From: Candidatus Multivoradales bacterium
GTDB lineage: Bacteria; Acidobacteriota; Thermoanaerobaculia; Multivoradales; J023
Assembly (NCBI GenBank): GCA_965248925.1
Contig: CBDFLE010000006.1
Location: 4,736,001-4,800,000, forward strand
DNA: 64,000 bases
Direction of reading: 5' to 3'
Made by a program: the position numbers and the translations under genes. Of this stretch, positions 6,865-49,839 are shown in pieces. The notes under the pieces are model-generated. The model was not told the origin of the DNA. It searched no databases and was given only the letters and a program-made list of their open reading frames with translations. How positions within the stretch are numbered: the stretch's first letter is position 1; every line of letters starts with the position of its first letter.

Positions 6865-7212
6865 ATGAACTCTGAGTCGACCGGGCAGAACAACCGAGAG
6901 GGAGCCGACCGCGGCTGGGTCTCCCAGGCGGTGCGACGGATGCAGCAGGGTGATGCCGTGGCCAGCCACTTCGAGCTGCTGTTTCGCCACTATGAGCCCA
7001 AGATCCGGGGCCACCTGCGGCGCGATGGCTGGCGCGACGCGGATCTCGACGATGTGGTCCAAGAGGTGATGGTGCGGGTCTATAGAGGAGTGAAGACGTT
7101 TCGTCTCGAGGCGTCCTTCGACACCTGGATCTTGCGGATCATGAGCAATGCCTCCAAGAACGCCATCCGCGGCCGCCACACCGGCAAGGCCCGCGCCACC
7201 CGCGCCTCCTGA
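6865..7212 (+). pseudogene. ECF RNA polymerase sigma factor, truncated (region 2 only)
   Basis: FELLFRHY...DDVVQEVMVRVYRGVKTFRLEASFDTWILRIMSN is sigma region 2; stop at 7212 comes before any region 4 HTH. Confidence 0.75.
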
Positions 7213-7229
7213 GACGCCTTGCTCGACCG

Positions 7230-8000
7230 GAGAGGCGAAACTGGACCGCGCATGGCTGAACCGCCGAGCGCGGCCGAGGGACTGCTCTCGGCGTCCAGCG
7301 ACTGCTGCTCGGCCGGGTGGAGGAGGGCATCGAAGAGTTGCGGCAAGCGGTTGCCGTGCGGCGCGCGCTGGGCGATCCGGTCGCCGTCGGTCAGACCCTG
7401 GGGTCCTTGGCCTGGGGTCTGAGTCTCGATGGCCAGGACGCCGCCGCGCGGGCGGCCTACGCCGAGGCTGTCGAACCGCACCAGCCGCTGGTGGAGAACC
7501 ACGAGGTCGTGCATCTGCCGTCGGCCTCGACCTTGGTGGCTTTACGCCGTCGAGCGGCGCGCCCGCCGGCCCCTCACCTGCTGGCGGTGATCGCCGGCCC
7601 GGTCTTCGAGGCCGACGATCCACGGCTCACCGGCAGCCCCCCACAGCAGACGGCCAGCGCCCCGAACTCGCCCCTGGCGCGTACCCGCCGGGCTCTCAAC
7701 GGCCAGTTCGACCGCCCTCAAGCCGCTGCCGAAGAAGGCTCGCGCATCGCCGCCATCGCCCAGCGGGTGGATGGGCTGGCGCCCCCGGTCCACAGTGGTT
7801 TCGCCGCCAGCCGCGAGCTGGTCACCGGTGGTGATCTCGACAGCTACCGCATCCTGCACTTCACCACCCACGGCATCGTCGACGCCGCCGATCCCGCCCT
7901 GGCCGGGCTGGTGCTGTCGCTCTACGCCGCCGCCAGCCGCCCCCGCGACGGCCTGCTGCCCGCCCGCGATTTGCGCGCTCTGCACCTCGCCGCCGGTCAA
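7230..8000 (+). pseudogene. TPR-CHAT protease remnant
   Basis: A short TPR segment is joined directly to CHAT motifs (HEVVHLPSASTL, YRILHFTTHG, GLVLSL, DGLL). Homology ends before the LVVLSAC catalytic Cys. No credible start; frameshifted 5' part. Confidence 0.75.
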
Positions 8001-9177
8001 AATCTAGCCCTTCGATCGCTTGACCGAGGACTTGCACCGCCCGGTCGAAGCTGTGGACTTGCTCGAAGCTGCAGAAGACCGCCTCCTCAAAGCGTCCGAC
8101 CCGCAACCACCATGCCGTCGCCTCTCGCGACAGCGCGGTCTTGCCCATGCCGCCGCCTCCGGCGACCACCACCGCGTTGTGTTTCTCGAAGGCTCTGCCG
8201 AGTTCCCACAGCTCCTGGGTTCGCCCCTGGAAGCGGTAGGTCGGCTCGGGCGGAAAGCCGTGCAGGCGCTCCTCCGGCGAGCTCACCAAGACCGGCGCGG
8301 CTCCGGCTTCGGCGGCCTCCGCGGAGTCGGCGTCGTCCGTGCGCAGCGACAAATCCGGCCTCACCTGGTAGAGCTGCGGCACGAACCAATCTTGCAGCTT
8401 GACGGTCGATGGATCTGGCCCCAGGGTCAGCCAACGATCGGGCTCGGCTCGCATCCTGGTCCGCGCCGCGGAGAGCGCCTGGCCAATGCTCTGACCGTCC
8501 GCCACCTGGCGGTAAAAGCTCTCCACCAGCAGGCGCGACGCCTCAATGTGGAGTTGGCAGAATTCGACCTCTACCGAACCTCGGGGCAGGCGATCGAGAC
8601 TATCGAGCAGAGGGCGAATGCTGCTGCGCGGATCGATGAAGCCGGAGTCGGTGGGCCGGCTGACGATCACCAGCAGACGCATCGGCAGACTCAGCTGCAT
8701 CGGCTCCAGGGGCCTGGCACCTTCGAGCTGCCGACGGATCGACACCCCGCGAAAGGCCAGTGGCCCCTTGCGATCTCGCATCAGCTCCCAAGGCTGCACC
8801 AAGACGGCAGGTTCCGAAGTGCCGAGGGTTAGCAGAACCGGGCGCTCGGCTTTCAGCGCTTGCAGCAGATTGCGGTAGACATGGGTGCCTTCGACGCTGC
8901 CAAAGGCGGCATCAAAGAGTGCCCGTCCCCACGGCTCAAGCTGGCGCTCCACCTTGTAGGCCCGCACCCGAGTGCCAGCACCGACGAACTCATGGTATTT
9001 CTCCAAGTACCAGCGCAGATCGGTGGCGTCGTCGCCGGTGAGGGGAGGCTTGAGCGCAAACGGCCCGGAGATCTGCCCGTCCGACTCCACCCACCGGGCC
9101 TCGTAGGGGGCGTTAGGGGAGGAGTCGGAGTCAGACTCGGTCTTGCGGATCACTAGGCGGACGGAATAAGGGGTCAT
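8000..9177 (-). pseudogene. CHAT + P-loop NTPase (NB-ARC-like) protein remnant
   Basis: RBS GAGGAG; CHAT N-terminal motifs (LRWYLEKY, PWELMRD, RLLVIVSRP); catalytic core missing; then FQGRTQEL...GGGGMGKTAL Walker A; homology lost near 8000. Confidence 0.75.
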
Positions 9178-34896: not shown

Positions 34897-36516
34897 TCAG
34901 ACCGCCGGTTGGCCGGTCAGCTGACGCCGGAGAAGTTCGTTCTCGAATGCCACGCCGACCTGGGCGGCGGCCAATTCAAGCATTTCTAACTCGTCTACTG
35001 GCCTGTAGGCGTCGCCATTGTCGGCGTAGATAACCGCGATTACCCGTTCGGTGCCAACCACGGGGATCGCCACCACCTGGTCGAAGTTCGGGCGGCCGAT
35101 CTTGTTGGCCAGATTTTCGGGCAAGCGAGCGTCAGCGAAGCTCGACGAGTGTGACGAGCCGCTGTCGATGACATCGATCAGTGAGCAGCGATCAGTCATT
35201 CGCAGGTGCAGGCCGCCACAGAGCTGGGCCAAGGGCTTGCGATCGACACCGAAGCCGAAGGCGCCGAGGGAAGCCAGGGTGTCGGGGCGAGCGAGAAAGA
35301 GGATGGCCCGTTCGACAGACTCGCTGAGAATATGCATCAAGTTCAAGGCCATGGTTGCCGAGATAACGCCGGAGCGCAGGTCGGCTACGATGCGCCGCAA
35401 TTTGTTGAACCCGGCCTTGGCCTCTTTCTCGACTTCGCTGCGAAACTCACTGAAGCCACGATCACGCACCAAGCTCGCCAGGCAGGAGGCCACCGCCTGC
35501 GGCGCACTGGGCACCGCGGCGACGGCGCCGGCCTCGTAGCTGCGGGCGGTCTGGAGGACATCGTCGACCATGGTGACGACGGTGGCTCGGGGTCGCTGCC
35601 GACGGATACTTTCTACTGTGCCGAGGTCGAAATGGTCGCTTCGCAAGTCGATCAGGACCACTGGCGCGGGCTCACCGGGTAGGGCTGAGCCAGCGTCGCG
35701 CACTTCGACCTGACCGAGGTGGCCATTCTCTTGCGGCATGAAGCCGCGCAGCTGATCGATGAACTGCCCATCGTGGGTCAGTACTTGCAAGCGCGGCCGG
35801 TTCTGCGGACTCCGGGTCTGCGGGGTCGACCGGTTTTCCTTCGGTTGCGCCTGGCCGGGGGCCAGCACCGCGTCGGAGAACTCTGCTACATCGGCCAGGG
35901 TGAAGGTGGTGCCGGATTCCAGCGGTTCGCTGCGGTTGCGCCGCTCGCGGGCGGCGGCGACACCATTTTCCGGGATGCCGGTCATGCCCCCCCCGGTATC
36001 GTCGAGAGAGTCGCCCTCGTCGTACATCTGGGCGCCGCGAAGCAGTAGTTGCTCGGTGTTGAGGCGAATATTGGCCAGTACATCACCCGGATACATGCCG
36101 AGTTCATCGATCGGTTTGAGTTGATCGCGGACGAATTCGAATTCGCCTTCTTTCCAGATCATGACGCGGAAAATAGTGCGCTCGATCTGACGCGTCACCA
36201 CCTTGTGAATCTGATCGGTGCTGACCAGCTGGGTAGCGGTGAGCACTTGCCCCAACGACTGTCTCGGCCAGGCGCTGCCTTGGATGCGCAGAGCCTGATC
36301 GAGGGCGTCTTGGGTGATCAACCGGCGGGCCACTAACAACTCACCTAGCCGCTTCGAGTCGGGACTCAGGGCATTGATGATGCGGCCGCGATGAAAGGTG
36401 ATTTCAGCCCGCTGGTCGCGCCGGCTGAGGGTCAGCGTGCCAGTGCTGTGGCCGAGGTGAACGAACTGCAGAACGTCAGCAACGGTGACGTCTTCGAGAT
36501 TGCCGGAGATGCTCAT
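34897..36516 (-). CDS. DUF4388 (PATAN-like) + degenerate REC + GAF-like protein
   Basis: MSISGNLEDVTVADVLQFVHLGHSTGTL, RLGELLV, WKEGEFEF; C-terminal VIAVIYADN. Confidence 0.8.
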   Translation of the reverse strand: MSISGNLEDVTVADVLQFVHLGHSTGTLTLSRRDQRAEITFHRGRIINALSPDSKRLGELLVARRLITQDALDQALRIQGSAWPRQSLGQVLTATQLVSTDQIHKVVTRQIERTIFRVMIWKEGEFEFVRDQLKPIDELGMYPGDVLANIRLNTEQLLLRGAQMYDEGDSLDDTGGGMTGIPENGVAAARERRNRSEPLESGTTFTLADVAEFSDAVLAPGQAQPKENRSTPQTRSPQNRPRLQVLTHDGQFIDQLRGFMPQENGHLGQVEVRDAGSALPGEPAPVVLIDLRSDHFDLGTVESIRRQRPRATVVTMVDDVLQTARSYEAGAVAAVPSAPQAVASCLASLVRDRGFSEFRSEVEKEAKAGFNKLRRIVADLRSGVISATMALNLMHILSESVERAILFLARPDTLASLGAFGFGVDRKPLAQLCGGLHLRMTDRCSLIDVIDSGSSHSSSFADARLPENLANKIGRPNFDQVVAIPVVGTERVIAVIYADNGDAYRPVDELEMLELAAAQVGVAFENELLRRQLTGQPAV

Positions 36517-37172
36517 TGGCCTCCTTGGAGGAGTCGCACCAGACTCTCGAGACTGTGCAGCTTGCGGGCCGCCAGGGCGTAGGCTTCGGCGGCAAATAGT
36601 GCTGAAGCGGCATGCGCCGCCAGCAGATCAAGGATCTCTCGATCGTCGGAGGATAGGGCCGGTTTATGGTCGAATAACTTGTCCAGCACCAACACCCCGA
36701 CGATGACATTCTGCACCCTCAAGGGCACGACGGCCAGGGCTTCGCCTTTGCCTTCTCCGAGCCGGATGACGCCGTCTTCCAGGGTCTGGTCGACCAGGGG
36801 CTCGCCACCGCGATAGAAGTCACCAGCGAAGTGATTTGGCAGATGCCCGTCGGCGAATCCGCGGCGCAAGGCCAGGCGACAGTGTTCGCTGTCGGAATCG
36901 CGCCACAGCAGCGCGAAGCGTTCGGCACCGAGTAGGTCGACGGCTATTTCAGCGATGGTCGCTTGCACCTCTTCCGAGCTTTGGGCGGCGTACAGCTGGT
37001 AGGTGGCGACGAACATCTTCATGATCTGGCCGCCGCGGTTTTCAATCACCACCATTCGCTGGGTGAGGTCTTCGTTCTCGGCTTCCAGAGACCGCAAGCG
37101 CTCCTCGAGCTGCTGGGCGGTCGCCCGGGACTCGCTCTCTGGAGTGCTGGTCGGCTGTAATTCGGTCGCCAC
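36513..37172 (-). CDS. Coiled-coil + GAF domain protein
   Basis: LAVVPLRVQNVIVGVLVLDKLFDHK...DREILDLLAAHAASAL. Confidence 0.8.
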   Translation of the reverse strand: MATELQPTSTPESESRATAQQLEERLRSLEAENEDLTQRMVVIENRGGQIMKMFVATYQLYAAQSSEEVQATIAEIAVDLLGAERFALLWRDSDSEHCRLALRRGFADGHLPNHFAGDFYRGGEPLVDQTLEDGVIRLGEGKGEALAVVPLRVQNVIVGVLVLDKLFDHKPALSSDDREILDLLAAHAASALFAAEAYALAARKLHSLESLVRLLQGGQ

Positions 37173-37810: not shown

Positions 37811-39010
37811 TTAGAAGCTGAAGTGAGCACCGAGAACGATCAGCTCGGTCGAATCGTCGAGAATATTGAACAGCAACGCGCGCTCGATGTCCGCCGGGTT
37901 GTCGGGAAAGGCGAAGCGGTTGCCAGTGACATCGTGGTAACTCAGTTTGAGCACGAAATTGGGATTGAACCAGCGGTTCAATCCGATCGCCACCTCTTTG
38001 TGCTCCTCGGTTTGGCGCACCACCGGCGGTAGAGGAAGGGGCAGCAAGAGGTCAAAGTCCCAATCTTCGAAGCGTCCGGCGACTTCCCAATTCTCGTGCA
38101 AGCGGAAGGCGACTTCACTGTAACCACCGTTGGTCTCGAAGGCGCCGTCCCGCTCTTGGTGGGTGAACTCTGAGCGCACTATCCAGCGCCCAGAGAGGTA
38201 CTCGGCATGCAGACCCCAGGTATCGACATCCGTAGGCACGTTGCCGCCGAGCACCGAAGCGATGGTCTGCTCGCCGGTGTAGGCTGAGAGGCCGATCTTG
38301 AAGCCGTCGACCGGGGTCAGCAGGTCAAGTTTTACGCCGATCATGTCGCGAGTTACGAATTTGGAATCGACGAAGCCGCTCAGCCGCAGGTCCTGATCGG
38401 CGGCTAGCAGGCTGGGAATGCGGAATTCTCCCTTCAGTTGGCCGATATAGAGATCGTACTGAAGACCAAACTCTCCGGGGTTGTGATGTAGCCCGGTGAT
38501 GCCAATGCCGTTGTAAAACTCGGCGATTACCCCCTGCGGGCCATAGATCGACTGCGGTAGCAGAAAGAAAGGGCGCAAAGTGCCGACGTTGAAGAATTCG
38601 GCATAGAGCGCGAAGGGATGGGGAACGCGGCCGACACGTAGCTTCAATGAGTCCGAAAAGGCCCATTCGGCAAAGGCGTACTCGAGTTCCGCGACGGCTT
38701 CGCCCTGGTCGTCTTCGAGGAATTGTATTTGGCCGACCAAGGTCAGCTGGTCCGCCGGTGTAGCGGTGATGTTGAGCGTCAAGTCCGCGTTGTCGTAGCT
38801 GCCTTCGTCGTCACCGACGGAATAGGCGTTGCCATCGGTCTTGCCGTAAGCCCAGCCGCCGAAGCCGTGCAGGACTACTTTGTCTCCTAGATCTAATGCC
38901 GACGCCGCTCCGGCAAAGCCGAGAATGATCGTCACCATCGCTCCCCCGGCGATGATCATTCTTGCTTTGTGCGTGGCGCGGCCCCTCTGGTCCCCTGAGA
39001 TGAGCCCCAT
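37811..39010 (-). CDS. Outer-membrane beta-barrel (porin-like)
   Basis: RBS AAGGAG; signal peptide; LEYAFAEW...LKLRVGR; alternating beta pattern; terminal Phe (GAHFSF). Confidence 0.8.
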   Translation of the reverse strand: MGLISGDQRGRATHKARMIIAGGAMVTIILGFAGAASALDLGDKVVLHGFGGWAYGKTDGNAYSVGDDEGSYDNADLTLNITATPADQLTLVGQIQFLEDDQGEAVAELEYAFAEWAFSDSLKLRVGRVPHPFALYAEFFNVGTLRPFFLLPQSIYGPQGVIAEFYNGIGITGLHHNPGEFGLQYDLYIGQLKGEFRIPSLLAADQDLRLSGFVDSKFVTRDMIGVKLDLLTPVDGFKIGLSAYTGEQTIASVLGGNVPTDVDTWGLHAEYLSGRWIVRSEFTHQERDGAFETNGGYSEVAFRLHENWEVAGRFEDWDFDLLLPLPLPPVVRQTEEHKEVAIGLNRWFNPNFVLKLSYHDVTGNRFAFPDNPADIERALLFNILDDSTELIVLGAHFSF

Positions 39011-39620
39011 GCGCTTTCTCCTTGGTCTGCTGTTCTCGAAATCACGGCCCAAGGGCCGCAGGAGGGGAAGTGTATAACAATCCACCTGGGCTTTTTTCGA
39101 TTGATTGAACGTGGAGTGATGAATTCACGGGTGATGGAGGAAAATCTGTCAGATCGTGACGACCTCTCTCTCCTGCTGCCCCGGCAGATGAATAGATGAG
39201 GCGGCGGCGTACCTGCTGCCCGGGGCCTCGGGTCATCCAGCTCCGTCTTGAGTATCGGACTAGCTGCTGGTATCACCAGACTCGAAGCCGTCTTCGAAGA
39301 TCGGAGCCTCGGGCGCAGCCTCCCTTGCGATCGAGAAGTAGCGGTAGCGCAAGCCAGTGCCGTTGGGCATCGAGCCGTCGGCGACACTGACAGCTCGATG
39401 CCCACATTCACTTGCCGGGTTCCGGAGCCTGCGCTCGGCTCATCAGGCTGCGCTTTTACGAAGGTTTGAAGTCCCTCGCTAGGGTGTGACGCCCCGGGCG
39501 GGACGGAGAGAAACGCGCCTATTTTCACCCGTTTGGGTAGTTCCCGAGACTTCAGAGTTTAGGGGTGGAAGATGAGGCAGGTCCGTGCGCGCTTCGCCGC
39601 GATGTGATGAGATCGGCGCG

Positions 39621-40511
39621 ATGAGCCCGATCGAGCAATTGGCCTTCGACATCCGCCGCACGGTGTTTCGCCATGTGCTCGACAATGGCGGTGGCTACCT
39701 GTCGCAGGCGTGCTCGTCGGCCGAGCTGCTGGCGACTCTGTACGGCGAACTGATGCATCTCGGCCCGTCAGAGGTCGCCGGCTTGCCGCAGCCTTTCGCC
39801 GGGGTTCCTGGGGCCGGCGCCGAGCGGCGCTCGGGGCGGCGCCACAACGGGCCGCTGGCGCCTGACCTCGATCGCCTGGTGTTCTCACCAGCGCATTACG
39901 CGCTAGTGCTCTACGCTACTTTGATCGCCAGCGGTCGGCTGCACCCACGGGCCTTGGAGGCATTCGACCAGGACGGTTCGACGCTGGAGATGATCGGCGC
40001 CGAGCACTCGCCCGGTTTCGAACTCACCACCGGCTCGCTGGCGCAGGCTTTGTCGACCGCTGGCGGCATTGCTCTGGCGCGGCGCCTGCGCGGCGATAGC
40101 GGTCATGTGTGGGTATTCATGAGTGACGGTGAATTCCAAGAAGGCCAGACCTGGGAAGCCATCGCCGCCTTGGCCTTCCACCAGCTCGACAATCTGACCG
40201 TGGTAGTCGACGTCAATGGTCAGCAATGCGATGGACGAATGTCGGCGGTGATGAGCATCGAGCCGCTGGCCCGGCGCATCGAATCTTTCGGCGCCACCGC
40301 CCGCGAGGTCGACGGGCACGACATAGAGCAGCTAATAGCCGCTGCCGGTGATCGCGGCCCTGGCCGACCCACCTTCGTTCTCGGCCGCACCGATCCCGCT
40401 CGCGGCATCGACCTGCTGCGGCAGCGGGCACCTCTGCTGCATTCGTTGACAATCGGCTCAGAGCAAGAGCTGGCTCGGTGGCGGCAGGCCTACCAGGAGC
40501 TCTACGGATGA
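39621..40511 (+). CDS. Split transketolase-like protein, ThDP-binding subunit (non-canonical)
   Basis: DRLVFSPAHY, PGFELTTGSLAQ, SDGEFQEGQTWEA...DNL...DVN, EVDGHD. Confidence 0.9.
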   Translation: MSPIEQLAFDIRRTVFRHVLDNGGGYLSQACSSAELLATLYGELMHLGPSEVAGLPQPFAGVPGAGAERRSGRRHNGPLAPDLDRLVFSPAHYALVLYATLIASGRLHPRALEAFDQDGSTLEMIGAEHSPGFELTTGSLAQALSTAGGIALARRLRGDSGHVWVFMSDGEFQEGQTWEAIAALAFHQLDNLTVVVDVNGQQCDGRMSAVMSIEPLARRIESFGATAREVDGHDIEQLIAAAGDRGPGRPTFVLGRTDPARGIDLLRQRAPLLHSLTIGSEQELARWRQAYQELYG

Positions 40512-41518
40512 GGCCCGAGTTGGTTAGCCGGCCCTATGTCGAGCGCTTTGTCGACTGGGCGGCGGACAAACCCGAGGTGGTGGTGCTGTCGGCCGACTTG
40601 ACCAACTCGTGCGAGATCGGTCGTTGGCGGGACACCTATCCAGAGCGCTTTTTCTCGATGGGCATGGCGGAGCAGAACATGCTGAGCTTTGCCGCCGGCC
40701 TGGCTCGTGAGGGCTTGCGGCCCTTTGTTCACACCTTCGCCGTATTCCTCTACCGGCGGCCTTACGATCAGTTGGCGATGTCGATCGCCTATCCGAACCT
40801 GCCGGTGCGGCTGATGGGTTTCTTACCTGGAATCACTACCCCTGGTGGGGTCACCCATCAGGCGATCGAGGATCTCGCCATTCTGCGGGCGACGCCCAAC
40901 ATGACGATCCTCGAAACCGGCGACGCGACCGAGGTTGAGTCGGTGCTCGATGCCGCTGACGCGGTCGATGGGCCGGTTTACGTGCGCCTGCTGCGGGGTG
41001 AGATCCCACGGCTGTTCCCAGCCGACGAGCCGTTGCGCCTGGGGCAGTCTCGGCAACTCAGCCGCGGCCGTGACCTGGCCCTGATCACCAGTGGCATCGC
41101 CACCGAAGAGGGTATCCGGGCCGGTCGAGTTCTGGCCGAGCATGGTGTCGGGGTGAGCCATCTGCATGTTTCCACCTTGAAGCCTTTCGGCGATCCGGCG
41201 TTGGAGCGGGCGATCGGCGAGGCGAAAAACGGGGTGATTACCCTCGAAAACCATTCGATCATCGGTGGCCTGGGCGCCGCGGTGGCTGAGTACATGGCCG
41301 AGCAGGCGGTCGGCGTGCCGCTGCGCCGCCTCGGGCTGCGCGATCGCTATGCCCACGGCGCTAGCCGTCCCTATTTGATGCGCACCCTGGAACTCGATGC
41401 CCAGGCGGTATTGGCGACGGCGTCGCGGTTGCTCGGTCGCGAAATTTCGGCCGCCGGCCTAGCCGCCGATCCCCCCTTCACCCCGTGCCGCTCGCTGGTC
41501 AACGCCGAGGCCTTGTGA
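40508..41518 (+). CDS. Split transketolase-like protein, pyrimidine-binding/C-terminal subunit
   Basis: LSADL, ERFFSMGMAEQNM, RRPYDQ, THQAIED, GPVYVRL, ENHSIIGGLG; ATGA coupling. Confidence 0.9.
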   Translation: MRPELVSRPYVERFVDWAADKPEVVVLSADLTNSCEIGRWRDTYPERFFSMGMAEQNMLSFAAGLAREGLRPFVHTFAVFLYRRPYDQLAMSIAYPNLPVRLMGFLPGITTPGGVTHQAIEDLAILRATPNMTILETGDATEVESVLDAADAVDGPVYVRLLRGEIPRLFPADEPLRLGQSRQLSRGRDLALITSGIATEEGIRAGRVLAEHGVGVSHLHVSTLKPFGDPALERAIGEAKNGVITLENHSIIGGLGAAVAEYMAEQAVGVPLRRLGLRDRYAHGASRPYLMRTLELDAQAVLATASRLLGREISAAGLAADPPFTPCRSLVNAEAL

Positions 41519-41562
41519 GGTTGCCGGTGAGGTTGCCAGTGAGGTTGCCAGTCTCGTTGCCG
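41515..41562 (+). repeat. 12-bp tandem repeat (4 units, last degenerate) at the RLP start
   Basis: GTGAGGTTGCCG GTGAGGTTGCCA GTGAGGTTGCCA GTCTCGTTGCCG. Confidence 0.9.
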
Positions 41563-42699
41563 CCGACCGTCCTTGAGTTGTCTGGCGAGCGGATTGTGGC
41601 GCTCTATGCCTTGGCCGGAGAAGAGAGCGCGGCACGGCAGCTGGCCGAGCATCTCTGTGTCGAACAGACCATCGAATTTCCCGTCGATCTGCTGCCCGAC
41701 GACGATATTCGCCACCACTTGGTGGCCAAGCTGGAGGATTTTCAGCCCGCCGCCGAAGCCGGTCGCTGGCTAGCGACGGTGAGTTTTGCCGAAGAACTTT
41801 CCGCCTTCGCTGGACCACAGCTGCTCAATCTGCTGTTCGGCAACATCAGCCTGGCGCCTGGGGTCAAACTGCTCGACTTTCAACTTTCGGCTCGGATTGT
41901 GGCCGGCTTCAGCGGGCCGCGTTTTGGCGTTGCCGGCCTGCGCCGCTTGCTCGGTGCGCCGCGGCGGCCCTTGCTGGCCACCGCCCTCAAGCCGCTGGGT
42001 TTGGCGATTGAGGAGCTGGCGGCGATGGCGGCCGACTTTGTCGAGGGTGGGATTGACTTGATCAAGGACGACCATGGCTTGGCCGATCAGCCCTTTGCCA
42101 GCTTTGCCGAGAGGGTGCGGCGAATCAGCACGGCGGTCGACCGCGCCAACCAGCGGCATGGCCGCCGCAGTCTCTATCTGCCATCGCTCAATGTCGCCGC
42201 AGAGCAGCTGTTACCGGCTGCTGAGCTGGTGGCGGCCAGCGGTGCTAGAGGAGCGATGGTGTTGCCCGGTTTACACGGTTTCGACGCCTTGCGAGCCTTA
42301 GCCGCGAACGACGATCTGGGGTTAGTGTTGATGGCCCACCCGGCGTTCCTGGGCGGCTGGGTGAGTTCACCCGCGAGCGGTCTCGATCACTCGCTGGTGT
42401 TCGGCCGCCTGCCCAGGTTGTTCGGTGCCGATATTTCGGTGTTCCCCAACTTTGGCGGCCGTTTCTCCTTCACTAGCGAGCAGTGTGCGGGCATCAGTGC
42501 GGGTCTAGGCTCACCTTGGTCGGGGATTGCCAGCGCATTGCCGGCCCCCGCTGGTGGCATGAGCCTCGAACGGGTTGGCGAGATGATCGACTTTTATGGC
42601 CGCGACGTCGGGCTGTTGATCGGCGGCGACCTGCACCGTGGCCCGAGTCGAGTCGAGCGCGCCGCCCGCCTGCGGGAGCTGGCCGCAGCAGCTGTCTAG
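41515..42699 (+). CDS. RuBisCO-like protein (form IV, KDDH type)
   Basis: VEQT, LFGNIS, GPRFGVAGLR, ATALKPLGL, GGIDLIKDDHGLADQ, MAHPA, PAPAGGM, LLIGG; GTGA coupling. Confidence 0.92.
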   Translation: MRLPVRLPVRLPVSLPPTVLELSGERIVALYALAGEESAARQLAEHLCVEQTIEFPVDLLPDDDIRHHLVAKLEDFQPAAEAGRWLATVSFAEELSAFAGPQLLNLLFGNISLAPGVKLLDFQLSARIVAGFSGPRFGVAGLRRLLGAPRRPLLATALKPLGLAIEELAAMAADFVEGGIDLIKDDHGLADQPFASFAERVRRISTAVDRANQRHGRRSLYLPSLNVAAEQLLPAAELVAASGARGAMVLPGLHGFDALRALAANDDLGLVLMAHPAFLGGWVSSPASGLDHSLVFGRLPRLFGADISVFPNFGGRFSFTSEQCAGISAGLGSPWSGIASALPAPAGGMSLERVGEMIDFYGRDVGLLIGGDLHRGPSRVERAARLRELAAAAV

Positions 42700-42839
42700 G
42701 CGCCACCACTCACGTCGACCGGAGAAGGCATTGATGAGGTCTGCGGGGAGAGGGTCGAAGAATGGCTCGGAAACGTCGATCCAACCTTTCGCCAATCCGG
42801 CGAGGGCGCGCATTAGCCGGGGCTGCTTGCCGGCTTTTC

Positions 42840-43400
42840 TCAGGCAGATTCGTAGGCCTCTCGCAGCCAGCCCAAAAGTTCGTCGTCGACCTGGTCGACG
42901 GAACTCAGCCGCACTCGGTGGCTGACCATGGCGTTGAAGCTGCCGGCAGCCTCGAGGCGCTCGCCAGCGGGCTTGCCTTTGAGCTGGATGCCGACGTCGA
43001 CACGGGTGCGGGTCGACGGTTGGATGAGACCGAACTGCTTGCTGCGCCGCAGGCTGACGTAGGTTTTCTTGGGTGAGAATTCGACCTCGGTGCCGAATGC
43101 CGCCACCCCTTTGGTCAAGCGGTCGTAGATCGGCTTGAGGTCGGACTTGGCGCCGGCATATTGGTTGGCGAGCAGGTCGTCTTGGCTGGCGGGTTGCTCA
43201 CCAGCCAGCGTGTAATGGGCAATCAGATTGGCGAAGCCGTGGCTGACGCCGTGCTCCTTTTTCAGCAGCTTGAGAACCTGACCGTGCTTGCCGAGCCCGC
43301 TGGCACGAGTGATCTTTAGCCAGGCATCCATGTCCTTACCGGTCTTCTCTGGCAGGTTGGCGACCATCGAGGCGGCCATCTCTTCGGGGGATTTGGGCAT
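42840..43400 (-). CDS. DUF4287/DUF5655 domain protein
   Basis: NLPEKTGK...LKKEHGVSHGFAN; PKKTYVSLRRSKQFG...VDDELLGWLREAY; RBS AAGGAG. Confidence 0.85.
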   Translation of the reverse strand: MPKSPEEMAASMVANLPEKTGKDMDAWLKITRASGLGKHGQVLKLLKKEHGVSHGFANLIAHYTLAGEQPASQDDLLANQYAGAKSDLKPIYDRLTKGVAAFGTEVEFSPKKTYVSLRRSKQFGLIQPSTRTRVDVGIQLKGKPAGERLEAAGSFNAMVSHRVRLSSVDQVDDELLGWLREAYESA

Positions 43401-43588
43401 CGTACACGCCGCTCCTTCGTAACGCTGTTCGTAAGGCAGAACGTATTATCGTCTGATTATCGTCTGACGGGCAGCATAGCAAGTGACGGGCTCGGTTCGA
43501 TCGCCGGGAGACTGGCGAAGACAGTCGCGGCCGGTTCAGGGTATGCTGTCGGAATCAAAAAGGTGCGGTTCGGGGCGTTGGGGACACC

Positions 43589-45860: not shown

Positions 45861-48800
45861 TCAGGCGGTGGCGGCGGTTGCTTCGGGGTGCAGGTCTTCG
45901 ACCTCCACCGCCACCAGCTTGGAAACCCCGCGCTCTTCCATGGTGACGCCGTAGAGGGTGCCGGCAACCTCCATGCTCAACTTGTTGTGGGTGACGACCA
46001 GGAATTGAGTGTCCTGGGCCATCTCCCGCAGGCAGTCGACGAAGCGCAGGACATTAGCGTCGTCGAGGGGAGCGTCGACCTCGTCGAGAATGCAGAAAGG
46101 CGATGGCTTGGTCTTGAACAAGGCAAAGAGCAGGGCGATGGCGGTCAGAGCCTTCTCGCCGCCCGAGAGCAGCATGATGCTCTGCGGCCGCTTGCCGGGC
46201 GGGCGGGCGACGATCTCGATGCCGGTGTCGAGGGGGTCTTCCGGATCGAGCAGGCCCATCGACGCCTCGCCACCGCGGAAAAGGCGGGTGAACATTTCGC
46301 TGAAAGTGCTGTTGACCGCCTCGAAAGTCTCCAGGAAGCGCTCTGAGGAAACCTCGTTGATCTCGCGGATAGTGTTGCGCAAGCTCTCCATCGAGGAAGC
46401 TATATCGCCGCGCTGGGTAGTCAGGAAGCCGTGCCGCTCGTCTTGCTCGTCGTATTCCTCGGCAGCCAGTACATTGACCGGGCCGAGCCGTTCGAGAATC
46501 CGCTTGCAATCGGCCAATTCCGCTTCGAGCTGGGCCAAGCGCTCCCGGTCTACGGCTTCGGGTAGGTCATCCTCTTCGACCATGACCGCCGCTGCCGCCG
46601 CGGTTTCGCCCTCCTCCAGTTGTTCTGGTTCGCCGTCGTCGGTCGAGGCTTCCACGGCCGGGTCGCCTGCCTCGGTGACTTCGCCAGCGAGGAGGGTTGC
46701 GGGATCTAGTTCAGCCGCGGTGTCGTTGGCTGCCGGGTCGTCGGTCTCATCCCCAGCTGCCAGTCCCAGCTGCTCTTGCGGCCGCGGCAGGGTGCCGGGC
46801 AAGTATCTATCGAACGCCTCGAAGTAGGCCCGAGCTTGGTGTTCTGAATCTTGGCGCAGGCCGGCGCGTTCGATGCGCAGTTCTTCGATGCGACCGCGGT
46901 AATCCTCGCGCGCTCGGCGATGGGTTTCCACCCGATCTTCGAGGGTGCGTACCTGCTGCCGGCGTTGATCGAGGGCGGTCTGGGCGATGAGCACTGCTTC
47001 TTGCGCTCCAGCTCTTTGCTCGAGGGCGATCTGGAGGGTTTCCTCGGCCTTCTCCATATTCAGCTCCAGCTCCCGCAAGCGGGTCGCCAAGGCGTCTTCT
47101 TCTTCGCTCCACAGTTGGATCTGGCGATGGCTTTCGGCCAGTTGGCGGCGCATCCGCGCGCCTTGTCGCTGCTGCGATTGGAGGCGCTCTTCGAGCAATT
47201 CCAGTTTGCCGCGCCGGCCGGCTCCGGCGGTGCGTACCGCTTCGCGTTGCTGACGCGCGGCATCCACCGCGGCCACCGCCTCGGCGATTTCCTCAACAGC
47301 CTGCCGCAGGCCCTTCTCGGCCTCGGCCAAGCGCTCGGCGAGTTCTTGCTTTTGCTTGGTGGCGGTGCCGATCTGGCGATCGATCTCCTGCTGTTCCTCG
47401 GCGATGGTGGCGATCGAAGCGGCGAACTTGTCGCGCCGGCCGAGCGAGTCCTGACGTCGGGCCTGGTCCACCGCAATCTCGCGTTCGAGCCTGGCCAGAC
47501 GCTCATCGAGGCGCCGGATCTCCCCTGCCAGAGCGGTGCGCTGGTCGACTAACTGGCGTAGTTGCAGCGTTTTTTCCTCAAGCCGCAGCTCGTTCTGGGG
47601 AATGCACTCTGCCAGTGTTTCGAGCTCGCTCTCGCGGGCCAGGATTCCTGGGGCCGCCTGCTCGCGTTGCACCCGCAAAGTGCCGGCCAACGCCCAATGC
47701 CGCTGGCGACTGATAAAGGCGACGCCGGGGTGCTGGCTGGCCAGCCGGGCGGCGTCGTCAACCGAGTTCACCAAGAAGGCTGGCGGCAGTGCCCGACCAA
47801 GCTCCTCTGACAGCCCCAAAGCGCTGGCCAGAGGCTGGCTGATCGCCGGGTCGTCGATCTTCGTTTGAGCGTCGTTGGTGCCAGGGGAGGTGCTGCCAAA
47901 AGAGGTGCCGGAAGCGGAGCCAGCCATTTGTGGCAGCAAGAAGATGCCGGATGCGTTGGCGTTGGCCAGCCGGTCGGCGAGCGCCAAGCCGTCGTCGCCG
48001 GGGGTCAGCACGACGGCGTCTGCGAGTTGGCCGAGGAAGTGGTCGATGCCATGCTCCCAGCCTTCTACCGGCCGTACCAGGTCGGCCAAGAAACGGGGCT
48101 GGTCGAGGCCGATGCCGCTCAAGATCTCGATTAGCGAGCGACGGCGCTCAGCGTGCTCGGCGCTGAGTTCGGCGAGGATCTGCTGTCGTTGGCGGTCGCC
48201 GGCCAGCTTCGACTCCAACTGCCGACGCTCGTCGCCCAGCTTCGCTTCCGCGGCCAAGGCGCGGTCGAGATCGGCGCCCATCTGCTGGCGTTGCTGCTGG
48301 CCTTCTTGCTGCTGACCGCGGGCTGCTGTGACCCGGGTTTCGATCTCTGCCAGCCGTTGGCTCGCTTCTGCGAGCTGCTGGCCGATGTTGCCACGTTCTT
48401 CTTCCAGGAAGCGACGGCGGAAAGTACGGCGCTCGATCTCGATTTGCTCGCGCTGCATGGCGGCGCGCAGCTGCTCGACCTCGGCCGCGGTTCTCTGCTG
48501 CCGCTGTCGCTGCTCGACCAACCCGCCCTCGCTCTCGACCAGCGCTTGATCGGCGGCGGCGATCAGCCGATCGTCCTCGGCGACCTGCTCGGCGGCGGCG
48601 TCACGCTCGCTGACCAGCTCTTGAGAACGTTGATCGAGTTCGCCGAGAGAATTCTGGTCGGCTGCGCTCGAGCGGTTTCTCTCGGCGGCGTGCTGTTGGC
48701 CACGGCTGTGGCGCTCGACGATCTCTTGGCGGGTCTGGCGAGCGCCCTTCAAGTACTCCTGGCGACCTTCGATAGTCGCTGCCAGGTCGGCGTGGCGTTG

Positions 48801-49664
48801 ATGGGCCTCGGCGACCGCGCTGGCCAGCCGGTCGAGGTCTTCGCGGCCGGCGCTCAGATCGGCGCTGTCGCGGCTCAATTCGGCACTCAGCCCGGCGTCT
48901 TGGTCGACCTCCTGGTGCAGCCGCTGTTCGAGTTCGGCGAGCGCTAGGCTGAGCAGCGACCAGCGGCCGAAGAGCACCAGCTTGAGCAAGCCTAGGTGGG
49001 TGCCCTCGTGCAGGCGGTAACGTCGAGCGGCGCTGGCTTGGCGCTTGAGTGAGCGCAGCGCCCGTTCGACCTCGGAGATGATGTCATCGAGGCGCAGCAG
49101 GTTGCCGGTGACTTCTTCGAGCTTGACCTCGGCGATCCGTTTGCGCGCCTTGTAGCGGGTGATGCCGGCAGCTTCTTCGAGCAGCTTGCGGCGCTCCTGC
49201 GGTTTGCCGGACAAGATCATGCCGATCTTGCCCTGCTCGATCACCGAATAGGCGCGGATACCCAGGCCAGTGTCCATCAGCAAGTCCTTGACCTGCTTCA
49301 GGCGGACGACCTTGCCATTCAGCCGATACTGCGAGTCGCCACTACGAAAAACCCGTCGGCCGATCGACAACTTGCCGTCTTCGGCATATTCGAAAGACGG
49401 ATCGGTGAGTAGTTCCAGAGTGACCTCGCCCATCCCCAGCGGCTGGCGCTTGTCCGAACCGTTGAAGATCACATCTTCCATCGTCCGGCTGCGCAGCGAT
49501 TTGGCGCTCTGCTCCCCCAGCACCCAGGTAATGGCGTCTGAGAGGTTCGATTTGCCGCAGCCGTTGGGGCCGACGATAGCCGTGATACCACCGGCGAAAG
49601 ACACCTCGACCGGGTCCGGAAAGGACTTGAATCCAGCTATCTGCAGTCGGTGGAGCTTCATCAT
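45861..49664 (-). CDS. smc: Chromosome segregation protein SMC
   Basis: GFKSF, GPNGCGKSN, EDVIFNGS, IEQG, LGPVN, LSGGEKALTA, PFCILDEVDAPLD, VTHN. Confidence 0.95.
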   Translation of the reverse strand: MMKLHRLQIAGFKSFPDPVEVSFAGGITAIVGPNGCGKSNLSDAITWVLGEQSAKSLRSRTMEDVIFNGSDKRQPLGMGEVTLELLTDPSFEYAEDGKLSIGRRVFRSGDSQYRLNGKVVRLKQVKDLLMDTGLGIRAYSVIEQGKIGMILSGKPQERRKLLEEAAGITRYKARKRIAEVKLEEVTGNLLRLDDIISEVERALRSLKRQASAARRYRLHEGTHLGLLKLVLFGRWSLLSLALAELEQRLHQEVDQDAGLSAELSRDSADLSAGREDLDRLASAVAEAHQRHADLAATIEGRQEYLKGARQTRQEIVERHSRGQQHAAERNRSSAADQNSLGELDQRSQELVSERDAAAEQVAEDDRLIAAADQALVESEGGLVEQRQRQQRTAAEVEQLRAAMQREQIEIERRTFRRRFLEEERGNIGQQLAEASQRLAEIETRVTAARGQQQEGQQQRQQMGADLDRALAAEAKLGDERRQLESKLAGDRQRQQILAELSAEHAERRRSLIEILSGIGLDQPRFLADLVRPVEGWEHGIDHFLGQLADAVVLTPGDDGLALADRLANANASGIFLLPQMAGSASGTSFGSTSPGTNDAQTKIDDPAISQPLASALGLSEELGRALPPAFLVNSVDDAARLASQHPGVAFISRQRHWALAGTLRVQREQAAPGILARESELETLAECIPQNELRLEEKTLQLRQLVDQRTALAGEIRRLDERLARLEREIAVDQARRQDSLGRRDKFAASIATIAEEQQEIDRQIGTATKQKQELAERLAEAEKGLRQAVEEIAEAVAAVDAARQQREAVRTAGAGRRGKLELLEERLQSQQRQGARMRRQLAESHRQIQLWSEEEDALATRLRELELNMEKAEETLQIALEQRAGAQEAVLIAQTALDQRRQQVRTLEDRVETHRRAREDYRGRIEELRIERAGLRQDSEHQARAYFEAFDRYLPGTLPRPQEQLGLAAGDETDDPAANDTAAELDPATLLAGEVTEAGDPAVEASTDDGEPEQLEEGETAAAAAVMVEEDDLPEAVDRERLAQLEAELADCKRILERLGPVNVLAAEEYDEQDERHGFLTTQRGDIASSMESLRNTIREINEVSSERFLETFEAVNSTFSEMFTRLFRGGEASMGLLDPEDPLDTGIEIVARPPGKRPQSIMLLSGGEKALTAIALLFALFKTKPSPFCILDEVDAPLDDANVLRFVDCLREMAQDTQFLVVTHNKLSMEVAGTLYGVTMEERGVSKLVAVEVEDLHPEATAATA

Positions 49665-49839
49665 GATCGCCAGGTCCGTAGGTCCGTTGAAGGGAGGCGG
49701 GAAGATAGCAGACCCCCGATCGAACCACAAGGAGTAGGGGTTGAGAATCTCGACGCCGCTATATGTGACTATTCTAGCGCGGCCGGTCCAGGCGGTCCAG
49801 GCTAGATCTGGACTCATTACCAAGCGGCTCCGGGGTCGC

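Follow-up and report, generated by a model that had tools for sequence, protein, structure and literature searches.

The window, by which we mean the whole stretch of 64,000 nucleotides that was analyzed, carries a trio of genes on the + strand. The first, TK-N (39621..40511; ATG start, 296 aa; PF00456 match, E 3.3e-18; alternative GTG start at 39585), encodes the ThDP/pyrophosphate-binding half of a split transketolase-like enzyme. The second, TK-C (40508..41518; 336 aa; PF02779, 3e-28; PF02780, 1.6e-14), encodes the pyrimidine-binding domain and the C-terminal domain of that enzyme. The third (41539..42699; PF00016, 6.2e-23) encodes a DeepYkr-type RuBisCO-like protein (RLP) of 386 aa when counted from 41539 and of 394 aa when counted from 41515. 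At the TK-C/RLP junction lies a 12-nt tandem repeat (41515..41562, + strand), in which GTG codons at 41515, 41527 and 41539 are possible in-frame starts, each with GAGG before it. Tandem Repeats Finder gave its unit as GTGAGGTTGCCA, with a period of 12, 3.2 copies and 96% matches over 41515-41552.

A sequence-only reading of this DNA had described the three genes as translationally coupled through an ATGA and a GTGA overlap. The three ORFs and the first overlap, in which the TK-C ATG overlaps the TK-N stop (ATGA at 40508-40511), can be read from the sequence. The GTGA at 41515-41518 corresponds to the first unit of the junction repeat. Because the repeat offers three GTG codons, the 386 aa of the database protein (P0001) imply a start at 41539, and the N-termini of RLP homologues align 3′ of the repeat in the homologue consensus, the RLP start is uncertain and the second overlap is possible but not established. 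The gap from TK-C to the RLP is at most 20 nt whichever start holds. An Rfam scan of 38800-43500 (E up to 1) returned no riboswitch or other RNA family, a promoter scan found nothing like a sigma-70 site, and the frequency of terminator-like sites did not exceed that in shuffled sequence. The trio stands alone in the source genome, with no sugar importer among its neighbors.

The RLP is the sole PF00016 match in the source genome. Its best solved relative was 3qfw (255.3 bits, 1.2e-74; next entry 141 bits), which we take to be RLP1 of Rhodopseudomonas palustris. Scores under the cut-offs of TIGR03332 (140.7 bits; cut-off 513.6), TIGR03326 (135.7 bits; cut-off 497) and NF042437 (OiaX, 89 bits; cut-off 700) place it outside the MtnW, form III and OiaX families. 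The low OiaX score, set against the score with 3qfw, also places it apart from the apionate RLPs within form IV, the grouping that would have spoken against the sequence-only reading.

The KDDH motif and the missing second Lys of KPK, both remarked on earlier, are present in the window RLP (KDDH at residues 176-179, counted from 41539; KPK replaced by K151-P152-L153) and are family-wide. K151, K176, D177 and D178 were found in 86/86 RLP rows and H179 in 85/86; H267-P268 is conserved also. The window RLP fits both the active-site pattern K-P-(L/M), K-D-D-H, H-P and 3qfw as the closest structure. The catalytic columns EQTxE, GN, KP, KDDH, HP, R293, GRF and GG are common to the TK-linked clade and to a cupin-linked sister clade. 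A quick tree built without an R. rubrum or R. palustris sequence, in which SH-aLRT was the sole measure of support, has a branch with a value of 99 between nine TK-less rows, two of which are linked to a cupin, and the 86 rows that include the window RLP. A cupin-linked RLP (L107) scored 310.8 bits with 3qfw and the TK-linked rows scored 252-255 bits. The characterized RLPs, about 45% identical to the window RLP, appear to be in the sister clade. By motif and tree, the window RLP is a DeepYkr-type protein from a sister clade of the cupin-linked RLPs. Its earlier assignment to the Rhodospirillum rubrum type holds for the catalytic columns and the closest structure, but it appears to stand beside the characterized cupin-linked enzymes and not among them. 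According to the accessible portions of PMC5893883 and PMC6302742, the DeepYkr RLPs of R. rubrum and R. palustris carry out a 1,3-isomerization in the MTA-isoprenoid shunt. By analogy, the window RLP is predicted to be a 1,3-isomerase acting on the MtnA product.

Both halves of the ThDP enzyme have a split transketolase as their best solved relative. For TK-N this was 6yak, the N-terminal chain (1.1e-34), and for TK-C it was 6yaj (1.7e-58), with DXS structures next (~1e-36). PF00456, PF02779 and PF02780, the full transketolase domain set, were all matched. Scores with the NCBIfam transketolase model NF004559 (159.8 bits for TK-N and 203.9 bits) were below its cut-off of 488, and TK-C scored 162.2 bits with the DXS model TIGR00204, below the cut-off of 465.95 and in the C-terminal half only. 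TK-N reached ~19 bits with DXS models and matched transketolase models far better. The source genome's own Tkt (866 bits; cut-off 682) has the canonical residues in the family alignment.

For the substrate residues we use His26, His100, His461 and Asp469 in what we take to be the numbering of E. coli transketolase, and we count the Asp/Asn metal motif, the activating Glu and His473 of the canonical enzyme among the cofactor residues. In the alignment, the TK family keeps the cofactor residues while the four substrate residues are replaced or lost. Asp169 and Asn199 are present in 61/61 TK-N members, and Glu55 and His117 in 65/65 TK-C members. TK-N also keeps His92 and His274, TK-C keeps Ser34 and Arg163, and three of four phosphate ligands are retained (Arg8/Lys, Ser34, Arg163). 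The His26 position is Tyr in 61/61 family members (Tyr26 in the window TK-N). The His100 position is Met in 51/61 (Met124 in the window TK-N) and Leu in 10/61, by which the donor pocket, as aligned, is altered where C1 of the substrate sits. His461 is lost, with no His in the aligned TK-C segment, and the Asp469 position is Gly in 65/65 (Gly113 in the window TK-C). In addition, a 27-residue insert at TK-N positions 49-75 interrupts the canonical motifs.

In canonical transketolase, His461 and Asp469 bind the aldehyde half through its phosphate and its 2-hydroxyl. Because both are lost, the pattern of the family is not the one expected if xylulose-5-P had simply been exchanged for its 1-methylthio analogue. 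In the accessible portion of PMC3657141, E. coli mutations at the positions of His26, His461 and Asp469 direct the enzyme to non-phosphorylated, non-hydroxylated aliphatic aldehydes such as propionaldehyde. Since the changes here are at the same positions, glyceraldehyde-3-P fits poorly as the released aldehyde.

A locus was informative if the sequence upstream of its RLP spanned 2.2 kb or more, and in 58 of the 68 such loci the order tkN-tkC-RLP was found on one strand. Trio-bearing loci occur in Actinomycetota, Chloroflexota, Bacillota, Spirochaetota, Planctomycetota, Pseudomonadota, Myxococcota and one archaeal MAG. Four of the 10 remaining genomes carry a TK-N orthologue elsewhere (53-60% identity); in 6 of the 68, all MAGs in which absence is not proven, neither the RLP locus nor the rest of the genome yielded a TK orthologue. 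Among 201 genomes of another class, that around G301, a TK-N orthologue was present in three and an RLP in the same three, one of which is the class center G301 itself, picked because it has the pair. Among the 23 genomes tested in the phylum of the window, TK-N orthologues of 60-62% identity were found only in G000 and in five genomes with a TK-clade RLP. The trio is conserved and co-inherited, which speaks for the sequence-only reading, and this distribution suggests that TK and RLP are functionally coupled.

MtnA was the commonest neighbor of the trio. Of the 51 TK loci whose flank was long enough, 28 have it immediately upstream in the same orientation, and 37 of 58 have it at some place in the locus; all four of the locus MtnA genes tested scored over the MtnA equivalog cut-off. 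The MtnK equivalog family was present in 22/80 loci and an aldolase-SDR fusion in 12/80. Sugar ABC importers, a SorC-type regulator, RbsD and an LsrF-type thiolase were also recurrent in the loci. Cultured carriers include Clostridium, Chloroflexus, Alicyclobacillus, Alkalispirochaeta and Marichromatium, next to many uncultured lineages.

The mtnA gene expected in the source genome was found (415 bits; cut-off 279), as was a 5′-methylthioadenosine (MTA) phosphorylase gene (313 bits; cut-off 274.85), both unlinked to the trio. Searches of this genome, which is 96.9% complete, found no MtnK, ARD or Dxr. No canonical DXS was found there either, the top match to the DXS model being TK-C (160.9 bits). 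The sole PF00596 match was a 678-aa aldolase-SDR fusion (C6:4242033; NF006196, 898 bits; cut-off 831), which sits 0.53 Mb from the trio. As no Dxr was found, the genome appears to have no MEP pathway to take up 1-deoxy-xylulose-5-P (DXP), and with ARD and MtnK likewise not found it fits a non-isoprenoid fate.

The earlier statement that the locus has no cupin was confirmed and extended: none was present among the neighbors of the trio, and tblastn of the whole source genome with two RLP-linked cupins (E 1e-3) returned nothing. A Cupin_2 gene lies immediately downstream of two of the nine TK-less sister-clade RLPs, and a spermidine synthase gene lies upstream of one. Three other TK-less RLPs (L109, L111 and L113) are followed by small ORFs that had no Pfam match and were unlike both cupins. 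The cupin and TK look like alternatives beside the RLP.

From the observed gene content, families, synteny, co-occurrence, MtnA/MtnK link and residue changes, we infer the substrates, the enzyme order and every chemical step of the following scheme. The trio would make up the specific half of a salvage branch that needs no oxygen and recycles the sugars left over from S-adenosylmethionine, with substrates coming from MTA and probably from 5′-deoxyadenosine too. MTA phosphorylase and MtnA would yield 5-methylthio- or 5-deoxy-ribulose-1-phosphate. A 1,3-isomerization by the RLP would move the carbonyl, resulting in 1-methylthio- or 1-deoxy-xylulose/ribulose-5-phosphate. The split ThDP enzyme would take the slot of the cupin methylsulfurylase. 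In the reaction that we purely infer for it, it would attack C2 of the 1-substituted ketose and cleave C2-C3, giving glyceraldehyde-3-phosphate and a ThDP-bound C2 unit. This unit might be released as an aldehyde or transferred to an acceptor; alternatively, the methylthio form might undergo beta-elimination of methanethiol to leave an acetyl unit. The pairing probably marks an undescribed salvage branch. We give about an even chance to the reading in which the RLP isomerizes the MtnA product and the 1-substituted pentulose-5-P so formed is then cleaved by the TK-like enzyme, and the altered aldehyde-site residues appear to fit the cleavage only partly.

The same residue changes bear on two other readings of the TK-like enzyme. 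It could be a carboligase or detoxifier with non-phosphorylated aldehydes or aldoses as acceptors, such as (methylthio)acetaldehyde, acetaldehyde, 5-deoxyribose or methylthioribose from the same salvage network, while the RLP acts on a phosphorylated product or in parallel. Tyr for His26, the loss of His461 and Gly for Asp469 lie at the positions of the E. coli aliphatic-aldehyde mutants in the available part of PMC3657141, Synechococcus elongatus transketolase makes 7-deoxysedoheptulose from 5-deoxyribose (PMC8102628, in its accessible part), and aldolase-SDR fusions, the would-be aldehyde makers, are found in some loci and in the source genome. However, the donor-side His100 is lost too, which makes ordinary ketol donors unlikely, most phosphate ligands are kept, and the tight pairing is with the RLP, the fusion being present in just 12 of the 80 loci. 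We regard the carboligase as unlikely. The inheritance of RLP and TK as one unit would have no explanation if the TK-like enzyme cleaved the MtnA product, 5-deoxy- or 5-methylthio-ribulose-1-P, directly at C2-C3, with the RLP in a parallel or side-product branch. Met or Leu at the His100 position would also disfavor a phosphate at C1, and Asp469 would still be useful for an alpha-hydroxy aldehyde. Direct cleavage was proposed earlier for the promiscuous transketolase of Methanocaldococcus jannaschii (prior work cited in the accessible part of PMC8102628), the phosphate-free aldehyde it would release agrees with the loss of His461, and MtnA is adjacent in many loci; we nevertheless find it quite unlikely.

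The sugar importers, regulator, RbsD and thiolase of the loci, together with the work of other RLP clades in sugar-acid catabolism, for example of apiose (PMC6302742, accessible part), would suit an unrelated pentulose or tetrulose phosphate of general sugar catabolism, with the MtnA and MtnK neighbors as promiscuous sugar enzymes. This is very unlikely in our judgment: those neighbors pass by score as MtnA and MtnK equivalogs, the RLP is under the OiaX cut-off and agrees with the methylthioribulose isomerase clade in its catalytic columns, and the trio of the source genome stands without an importer. The operon might instead supply DXP for vitamins in a cell without DXS, either through the RLP from 5-deoxyribulose-1-P or through the TK-like enzyme as a DXS analogue. 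PdxJ (269 bits; cut-off 192.75), PdxA and ThiG are present, neither DXS nor Dxr was found, and TK-C is the best match to the DXS model, with DXS enzymes as its second-best solved relatives. The absence of DXS is, however, a trait of the lineage and not of the genomes that carry the RLP and TK (10/11 other genomes of the order lack it at E 1e-100); PdxJ is present in 12/12 and ThiG in 10/12 genomes of the order, but a TK-N orthologue in 0/11 others. DXS occurs in 7/15 genomes of the phylum with an RLP versus 168/301 overall, and Asp469, which DXS keeps in printed alignments, is Gly in TK-C. The cross-tabulation of genomes gives no support to the trio as a DXS replacement, and we consider DXP supply highly improbable.

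Returning to isomerization by the RLP followed by cleavage, a route that ended in an aldehyde and a triose phosphate would duplicate a one-enzyme aldolase step, and the source genome has an aldolase-SDR fusion. By analogy with other ThDP enzymes, the split enzyme might be a new kind of lyase, which cleaves 1-methylthio-xylulose/ribulose-5-P and expels methanethiol from the enamine, resulting in glyceraldehyde-3-P, methanethiol and an acetyl unit. We hold this tentatively and think it rather unlikely. If true, all carbon and sulfur of MTA would be recovered without oxygen, reductant or an isoprenoid pathway, with methanethiol usable for methionine resynthesis, by a unit spread by gene transfer over at least 8 phyla.

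MTA and 5′-deoxyadenosine are produced by every cell and are inhibitors of the enzymes that make them. To our knowledge, few routes for their disposal have been described. A conserved unit of RLP and ThDP enzyme, if real, would be a further one. It would also assign a function to the large sister clade of the sole characterized DeepYkr RLPs, and would show natural evolution of a transketolase at active-site positions that engineers mutate for substrate range. Since some carriers are in culture, this can be put to a direct test. We found no description of an RLP-transketolase link in a literature search that may miss genome-context remarks and supplements; the matches concerned the Calvin cycle or 7-deoxysedoheptulose. 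The link is likewise absent from the accessible portions of PMC6302742, PMC5893883, PMC13454268, 10.1101/386292 and PMC7895386.

Among known systems, the MTA-isoprenoid shunt (MtnP, MtnA, DeepYkr RLP1 and a cupin 1-methylthioxylulose-5-P methylsulfurylase) is alike in MtnP and MtnA, and its RLP shares the superfamily branch and catalytic columns of the window RLP but apparently belongs to the sister clade (99 SH-aLRT). It differs in that neither cupin nor Dxr was detected in the source genome, where a ThDP enzyme is in the place of the partner. The DHAP shunt (MtnP or MtnK, MtnA and the class II aldolase Ald2) has the same entry steps and is likewise independent of oxygen. The trio, in contrast, has no aldolase, and its expected triose would be glyceraldehyde-3-P after an extra isomerization, not DHAP; the class II aldolase domain of the source genome occurs only within the aldolase-SDR fusion, which co-occurs with the trio in the 12 loci noted above.

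The split transketolase of Carboxydothermus hydrogenoformans (6yak/6yaj) has the same two-chain architecture and cofactor motifs and is the closest structure for both halves. Its motifs read GH...GH...GQG and tHaG...eDG, whereas the window enzyme has GY, MI, AQA, fLPG and pGG in addition to the 27-residue insert. DXS likewise depends on ThDP and works with glyceraldehyde-3-P and a 1-deoxy-ketose-5-phosphate, but the TIGR00204 match was sub-cut-off and confined to the C-terminal half, and TK-N is nearer to transketolase models. In phosphoketolase and sulfoacetaldehyde acetyltransferase, a beta-leaving group (water or sulfite) is expelled from the enamine to give acetyl-ThDP. These enzymes are a precedent for the proposed loss of methanethiol, in mechanism only. 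The transketolase steps of 5′-deoxyadenosine salvage, documented in S. elongatus and suggested in M. jannaschii, also link transketolase chemistry to the sugars of S-adenosylmethionine by-products (PMC8102628, accessible part). Those steps are side activities of a housekeeping transketolase, whereas here an altered paralogue, apparently dedicated, is inherited with the RLP and the canonical Tkt is retained.

The RuBisCO-like protein (RLP) and the split thiamine diphosphate (ThDP) enzyme are encoded by three ORFs in a row on the plus strand (39585-42699). TK-N (39621-40511) matches the transketolase ThDP-binding domain PF00456 (E 3.3e-18). TK-C (40508-41518) matches PF02779 (pyrimidine-binding, 3e-28) and PF02780 (C-terminal, 1.6e-14). 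The RLP gene, which ends at 42699, matches PF00016 (RuBisCO large-chain catalytic, 6.2e-23). The sequence-only reading had both junctions coupled by overlaps. The ATGA between TK-N and TK-C can be read in the sequence. A GTGA is present at 41515, but its role as a functional overlap is uncertain because it opens a tandem repeat with a 12-nt unit, GTGAGGTTGCCA (41515-41552 in region 41515-41562, 3.2 copies), at the junction of the TK-C stop and the RLP start; because the database copy of the RLP, at 386 amino acids, starts at 41539; and because the alignment of RLP homologues begins only past the repeat. The repeat codes for VRLP repeats and holds three in-frame GTG codons, each of them preceded by a GAGG at a distance of six bases, and slippage in it could alter the RLP N-terminus or the coupling of TK-C and RLP. 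The spacing between these two genes is 20 nt at most.

The trio is isolated in the window, since the flanking genes are unrelated: a porin-like gene, response regulators, GAF/DUF4388 proteins and CheR/CheB upstream on the opposite strand, and a DUF4287/DUF5655 protein, a hydrolase and a PilZ protein downstream. Neither a riboswitch nor a consensus promoter was found at the trio. Ahead of TK-N, a minus-strand ORF of 190 aa (38956-39528) that matches no family takes up most of the interval and overlaps the porin-like gene at its start. It is unlikely to be a real gene; without it, about 0.5 kb of untranslated DNA would precede the operon. A DUF4388/GAF protein (34897-37172, minus strand) with an MshE-type c-di-GMP-binding motif adjoins a GAF protein and a receiver domain, and a 1320-aa ORF lies at 45861-49823 (minus strand). 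The surroundings look like a chemotaxis and c-di-GMP signalling region unconnected to the trio.

The trio, whose conservation the sequence-only reading had proposed to test, is widely conserved. With each species represented by a single genome, a scan gave 581 relatives, of which the best 80 loci were kept; 68 of these 80 were informative, the RLP having 2.2 kb or more of sequence upstream. The order tkN-tkC-RLP on one strand was found in 58 of the 68 (best 80 of 581), with a TK-C to RLP gap of -9 to 246 nt in 56 of the 58. Two of the remaining loci had TK-C only and eight had neither half; in 4 of these 10 genomes a TK-N ortholog (53-60% identity) was present elsewhere, and a search of the other six gave matches of 30-39% or none. 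Carriers among the best 80 of 581 belong to Actinomycetota, Chloroflexota, Bacillota (including Clostridium ljungdahlii, C. drakei and an Alicyclobacillus), Spirochaetota, Planctomycetota, Pseudomonadota, Myxococcota and Gemmatimonadota, with one Promethearchaeota MAG. Besides C. ljungdahlii, cultured carriers include Chloroflexus sp. MS-G and Alkalispirochaeta alkalica. In the reverse direction, 3 of 201 genomes of one Acidimicrobiia MAG's class had TK-N orthologs, one of them being that MAG itself (G301), picked as the centre for having the genes, and the same three had the RLP, adjoining. In the window's phylum, the RLP was detected at E <= 1e-40 in 15 of 301 sampled genomes; the 301-genome tallies, for RLP and DXS, take in G024, G049 and G152, which are flagged unpublished, and none of the claims depends on any one of them. 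Among 23 genomes of the phylum tested, TK-N orthologs (60-62% identity) occurred in the window's genome and in exactly the five with the RLP closest to the window's; TK-N lies <1.5 kb from the RLP in four of these five and starts about 3.5 kb away in the other (G096). A Chloroflexia MAG (G302) has two TK-N orthologs 13 kb apart (C3:46143-47000 and C3:59588-60454, 61-62% identity), so the unit is duplicated there. The Promethearchaeota contig carries mtnA-tkN-tkC-RLP (L023, 5809-10079) with a bacterial-type MtnA (450 bits), so that either the genes were transferred to archaea or the contig was misbinned.

The neighbours point to a link between the trio and by-products of S-adenosylmethionine. 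Of the 51 TK loci whose flank reaches 3.4 kb or more, 28 had MtnA as the adjoining upstream gene on the same strand, and it was anywhere in the locus in 37 of 58 (both among the best 80 of 581); all four locus MtnA genes tested exceeded the equivalog cut-off (418-450 bits vs 279). Clustering of 850 neighbouring ORFs from the best 80 of 581 loci gave as recurrent partners a SorC-type regulator (23 loci), an MtnK equivalog (22 loci; 392 bits vs 275), sugar ABC importer parts (10-13 loci), an aldolase-SDR fusion (NF006196, 12 loci), an SDR (9 loci), an LsrF thiolase equivalog (8 loci, one at L013 2109-2987; 336 bits vs 297) and RbsD (7 loci). LsrF is the 3-hydroxy-5-phosphonooxypentane-2,4-dione thiolase, and as its substrate is 1-deoxy-xylulose-5-P (DXP) oxidised at C4, its presence beside the trio hints at a second, CoA-dependent exit for a 1-deoxy product. 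In a Planctomycetaceae MAG (L053), the gene that immediately precedes the RLP encodes a Cys/Met-metabolism PLP enzyme (7113-8255), which would agree with methanethiol being used again.

The window's own genome (G000) encodes MtnA (415 bits vs 279) and a 5'-methylthioadenosine phosphorylase (TIGR01694, 313 vs 274.85), both unlinked to the trio. Also unlinked is an aldolase-SDR of the same family (898 bits vs 831), 44% identical to the cluster type. Searches of the genome found no MtnK, ARD dioxygenase, stand-alone class II aldolase or LsrF, and no RLP-linked cupin, in agreement with its noted absence from the window.

The RLP is the sole RuBisCO-family gene in G000 (7.98 Mb, 6 contigs, 96.9% complete). 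It fails every curated NCBIfam model: MtnW (140.7 vs 513.6 bits), NF007095 (189.5 vs 409), form III (135.7 vs 497) and OiaX of the apiose pathway (89 vs 700). The sequence-only reading had named a grouping with apionate or other sugar-acid RLPs as a refutation. Its best solved relative is 3qfw (255.3 bits), which we take to be the R. palustris DeepYkr RLP; YkrW-type enolases (128-141 bits), the Chlorobium RLP (100) and R. palustris RLP2 (95) score lower. The altered signatures read from the sequence are present, as K176-D-D-H179 and K151-P-L153 (numbered from 41539). In R. rubrum and R. palustris the DeepYkr RLPs are described as 5-methylthioribulose-1-P 1,3-isomerases, and a cupin methylsulfurylase encoded by an adjacent gene then yields methanethiol and DXP (PMC5893883, PMC6302742).

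In a quick maximum-likelihood tree of 95 RLPs (midpoint root, SH-aLRT support only), a branch with support 99 had on one side nine RLPs that lack TK and come from the window's phylum, and on the other the remaining 86 rows, the window's included. TK was in the locus for 73 of the 86 and absent for nine, and four loci were too short. Among the nine nested rows without TK, L105 is a labelling artefact from a short locus, and the genomes of L053 and L083 carry TK-N at another place. In the sister clade of nine, two RLPs (L107 and L108) are directly followed by a Cupin_2 gene, and L108 also has a spermidine synthase upstream; 3qfw scores 310.8 bits to the L107 RLP vs 255 to the window's and 252 to that of C. 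ljungdahlii. Because of this split, the cupin linkage and the higher score of L107, the TK-linked RLPs are, on this tree, probably a sister group of the characterised DeepYkr type. The catalytic columns are nonetheless common to the two clades (E42-Q-T-x-E46, G101-N102, K151-P152, K176-D-D-H179, H267-P268, R293, G307-R-F309, G339-G340), and the window's RLP falls in the TK-linked group and not among the cupin-linked proteins. It groups with three Actinomycetota rows (support 99) and not with Myxococcota rows, which together with the patchy distribution suggests gene transfer without an assignable direction.

The nearest solved structures of TK-N and TK-C are both chains of the Carboxydothermus hydrogenoformans split transketolase (1.1e-34 and 1.7e-58), followed for TK-C by DXS. 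Both halves fall far under the transketolase and DXS cut-offs, and G000 has a separate full-length transketolase, Tkt (866 bits vs 682). We aligned 61 TK-N and 65 TK-C family members with Tkt; canonical positions are given in E. coli numbering. The metal-motif Asp and Asn are kept (Asp169 and Asn199, each 61/61), as are Glu411 (Glu55), His473 (His117) and Arg520 (Arg163), each in 65/65, and Ser385 (Ser34, 62/65). The His66 column (His92) has His in 51 and Gln in 10 of 61. His26 is replaced by Tyr in 61/61, Asp469 by Gly in 65/65 (Gly113 in TK-C), and His100, the residue holding the donor C1 hydroxyl, by Met in 51 and Leu in 10 of 61 (Met124 in TK-N). The GPLGQG motif reads GSLAQA in most members, His461 is lost from a segment without any His, and a conserved 27-residue insert follows residue 48 of TK-N. 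By these residues the RLP-linked enzyme is not a canonical transketolase. In E. coli transketolase, H461 binds the substrate phosphate, H461S and D469 variants have increased activity on glycolaldehyde or propionaldehyde, and H26Y reverses enantioselectivity on propionaldehyde (PMC3657141).

The most economical reading of these sequences is that the RLP would isomerise the MtnA product to a 1-methylthio- or 1-deoxy-xylulose/ribulose-5-P and that the split ThDP enzyme, in the cupin's place, would cleave the C2-C3 bond of the RLP product. The replacement of His100 by Met or Leu is in keeping with methyl or methylthiomethyl as the C1 group. The C2 unit might be released as an aldehyde, be transferred to an acceptor or, with methanethiol leaving the enamine, become an acetyl unit; this third option would follow phosphoketolase and sulfoacetaldehyde acetyltransferase, which are precedents for leaving-group loss from a ThDP enamine. 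We favour a product that differs from that of the aldolase route, because the aldolase-SDR fusion is often in the same clusters. Tyr26, Gly113 and the absence of His461 point to an aldehyde that is less polar or unphosphorylated, contrary to this simple picture. Because these changes count against it, we keep alive two other readings, in which the enzyme is an acceptor-type carboligase or cleaves ribulose-1-phosphates directly; the latter activity was once suggested for M. jannaschii (cited in PMC8102628).

Supply of DXP by the trio could be considered, since G000 has PdxA (L003 5622-6635), PdxJ (C6:4593996-4594703; 269 bits vs 192.75) and ThiG (C6:2275917-2276651), no Dxr was found in it, no canonical DXS was found at E 0.001, and what the DXS model matches best is TK-C (160.9 bits vs 466). 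But the whole order has the same pattern whether or not the trio is present, and this role is therefore unlikely: PdxJ is in 12 and ThiG in 10 of its 12 genomes, and among the other 11, 10 lack DXS at E 1e-100 and none has a TK-N ortholog. Three fused E1 alpha-beta proteins (L089, L091 and L092) are candidates for the source of DXP in this lineage, whose PdxJ and ThiG consume it. Because G000 appears to lack the MEP pathway, sending the RLP product into isoprenoid synthesis, its classical fate, would be pointless there.

Full-text searches of the accessible literature gave no description of an RLP-transketolase pair. The window presents the unit in a minimal, isolated form, in a host where searches found no MtnK, RLP-linked cupin, Dxr or canonical DXS. 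The sister-clade relation of TK-linked and cupin-linked RLPs is seen inside one phylum, and the residue changes of this natural family parallel those of engineered transketolase variants.
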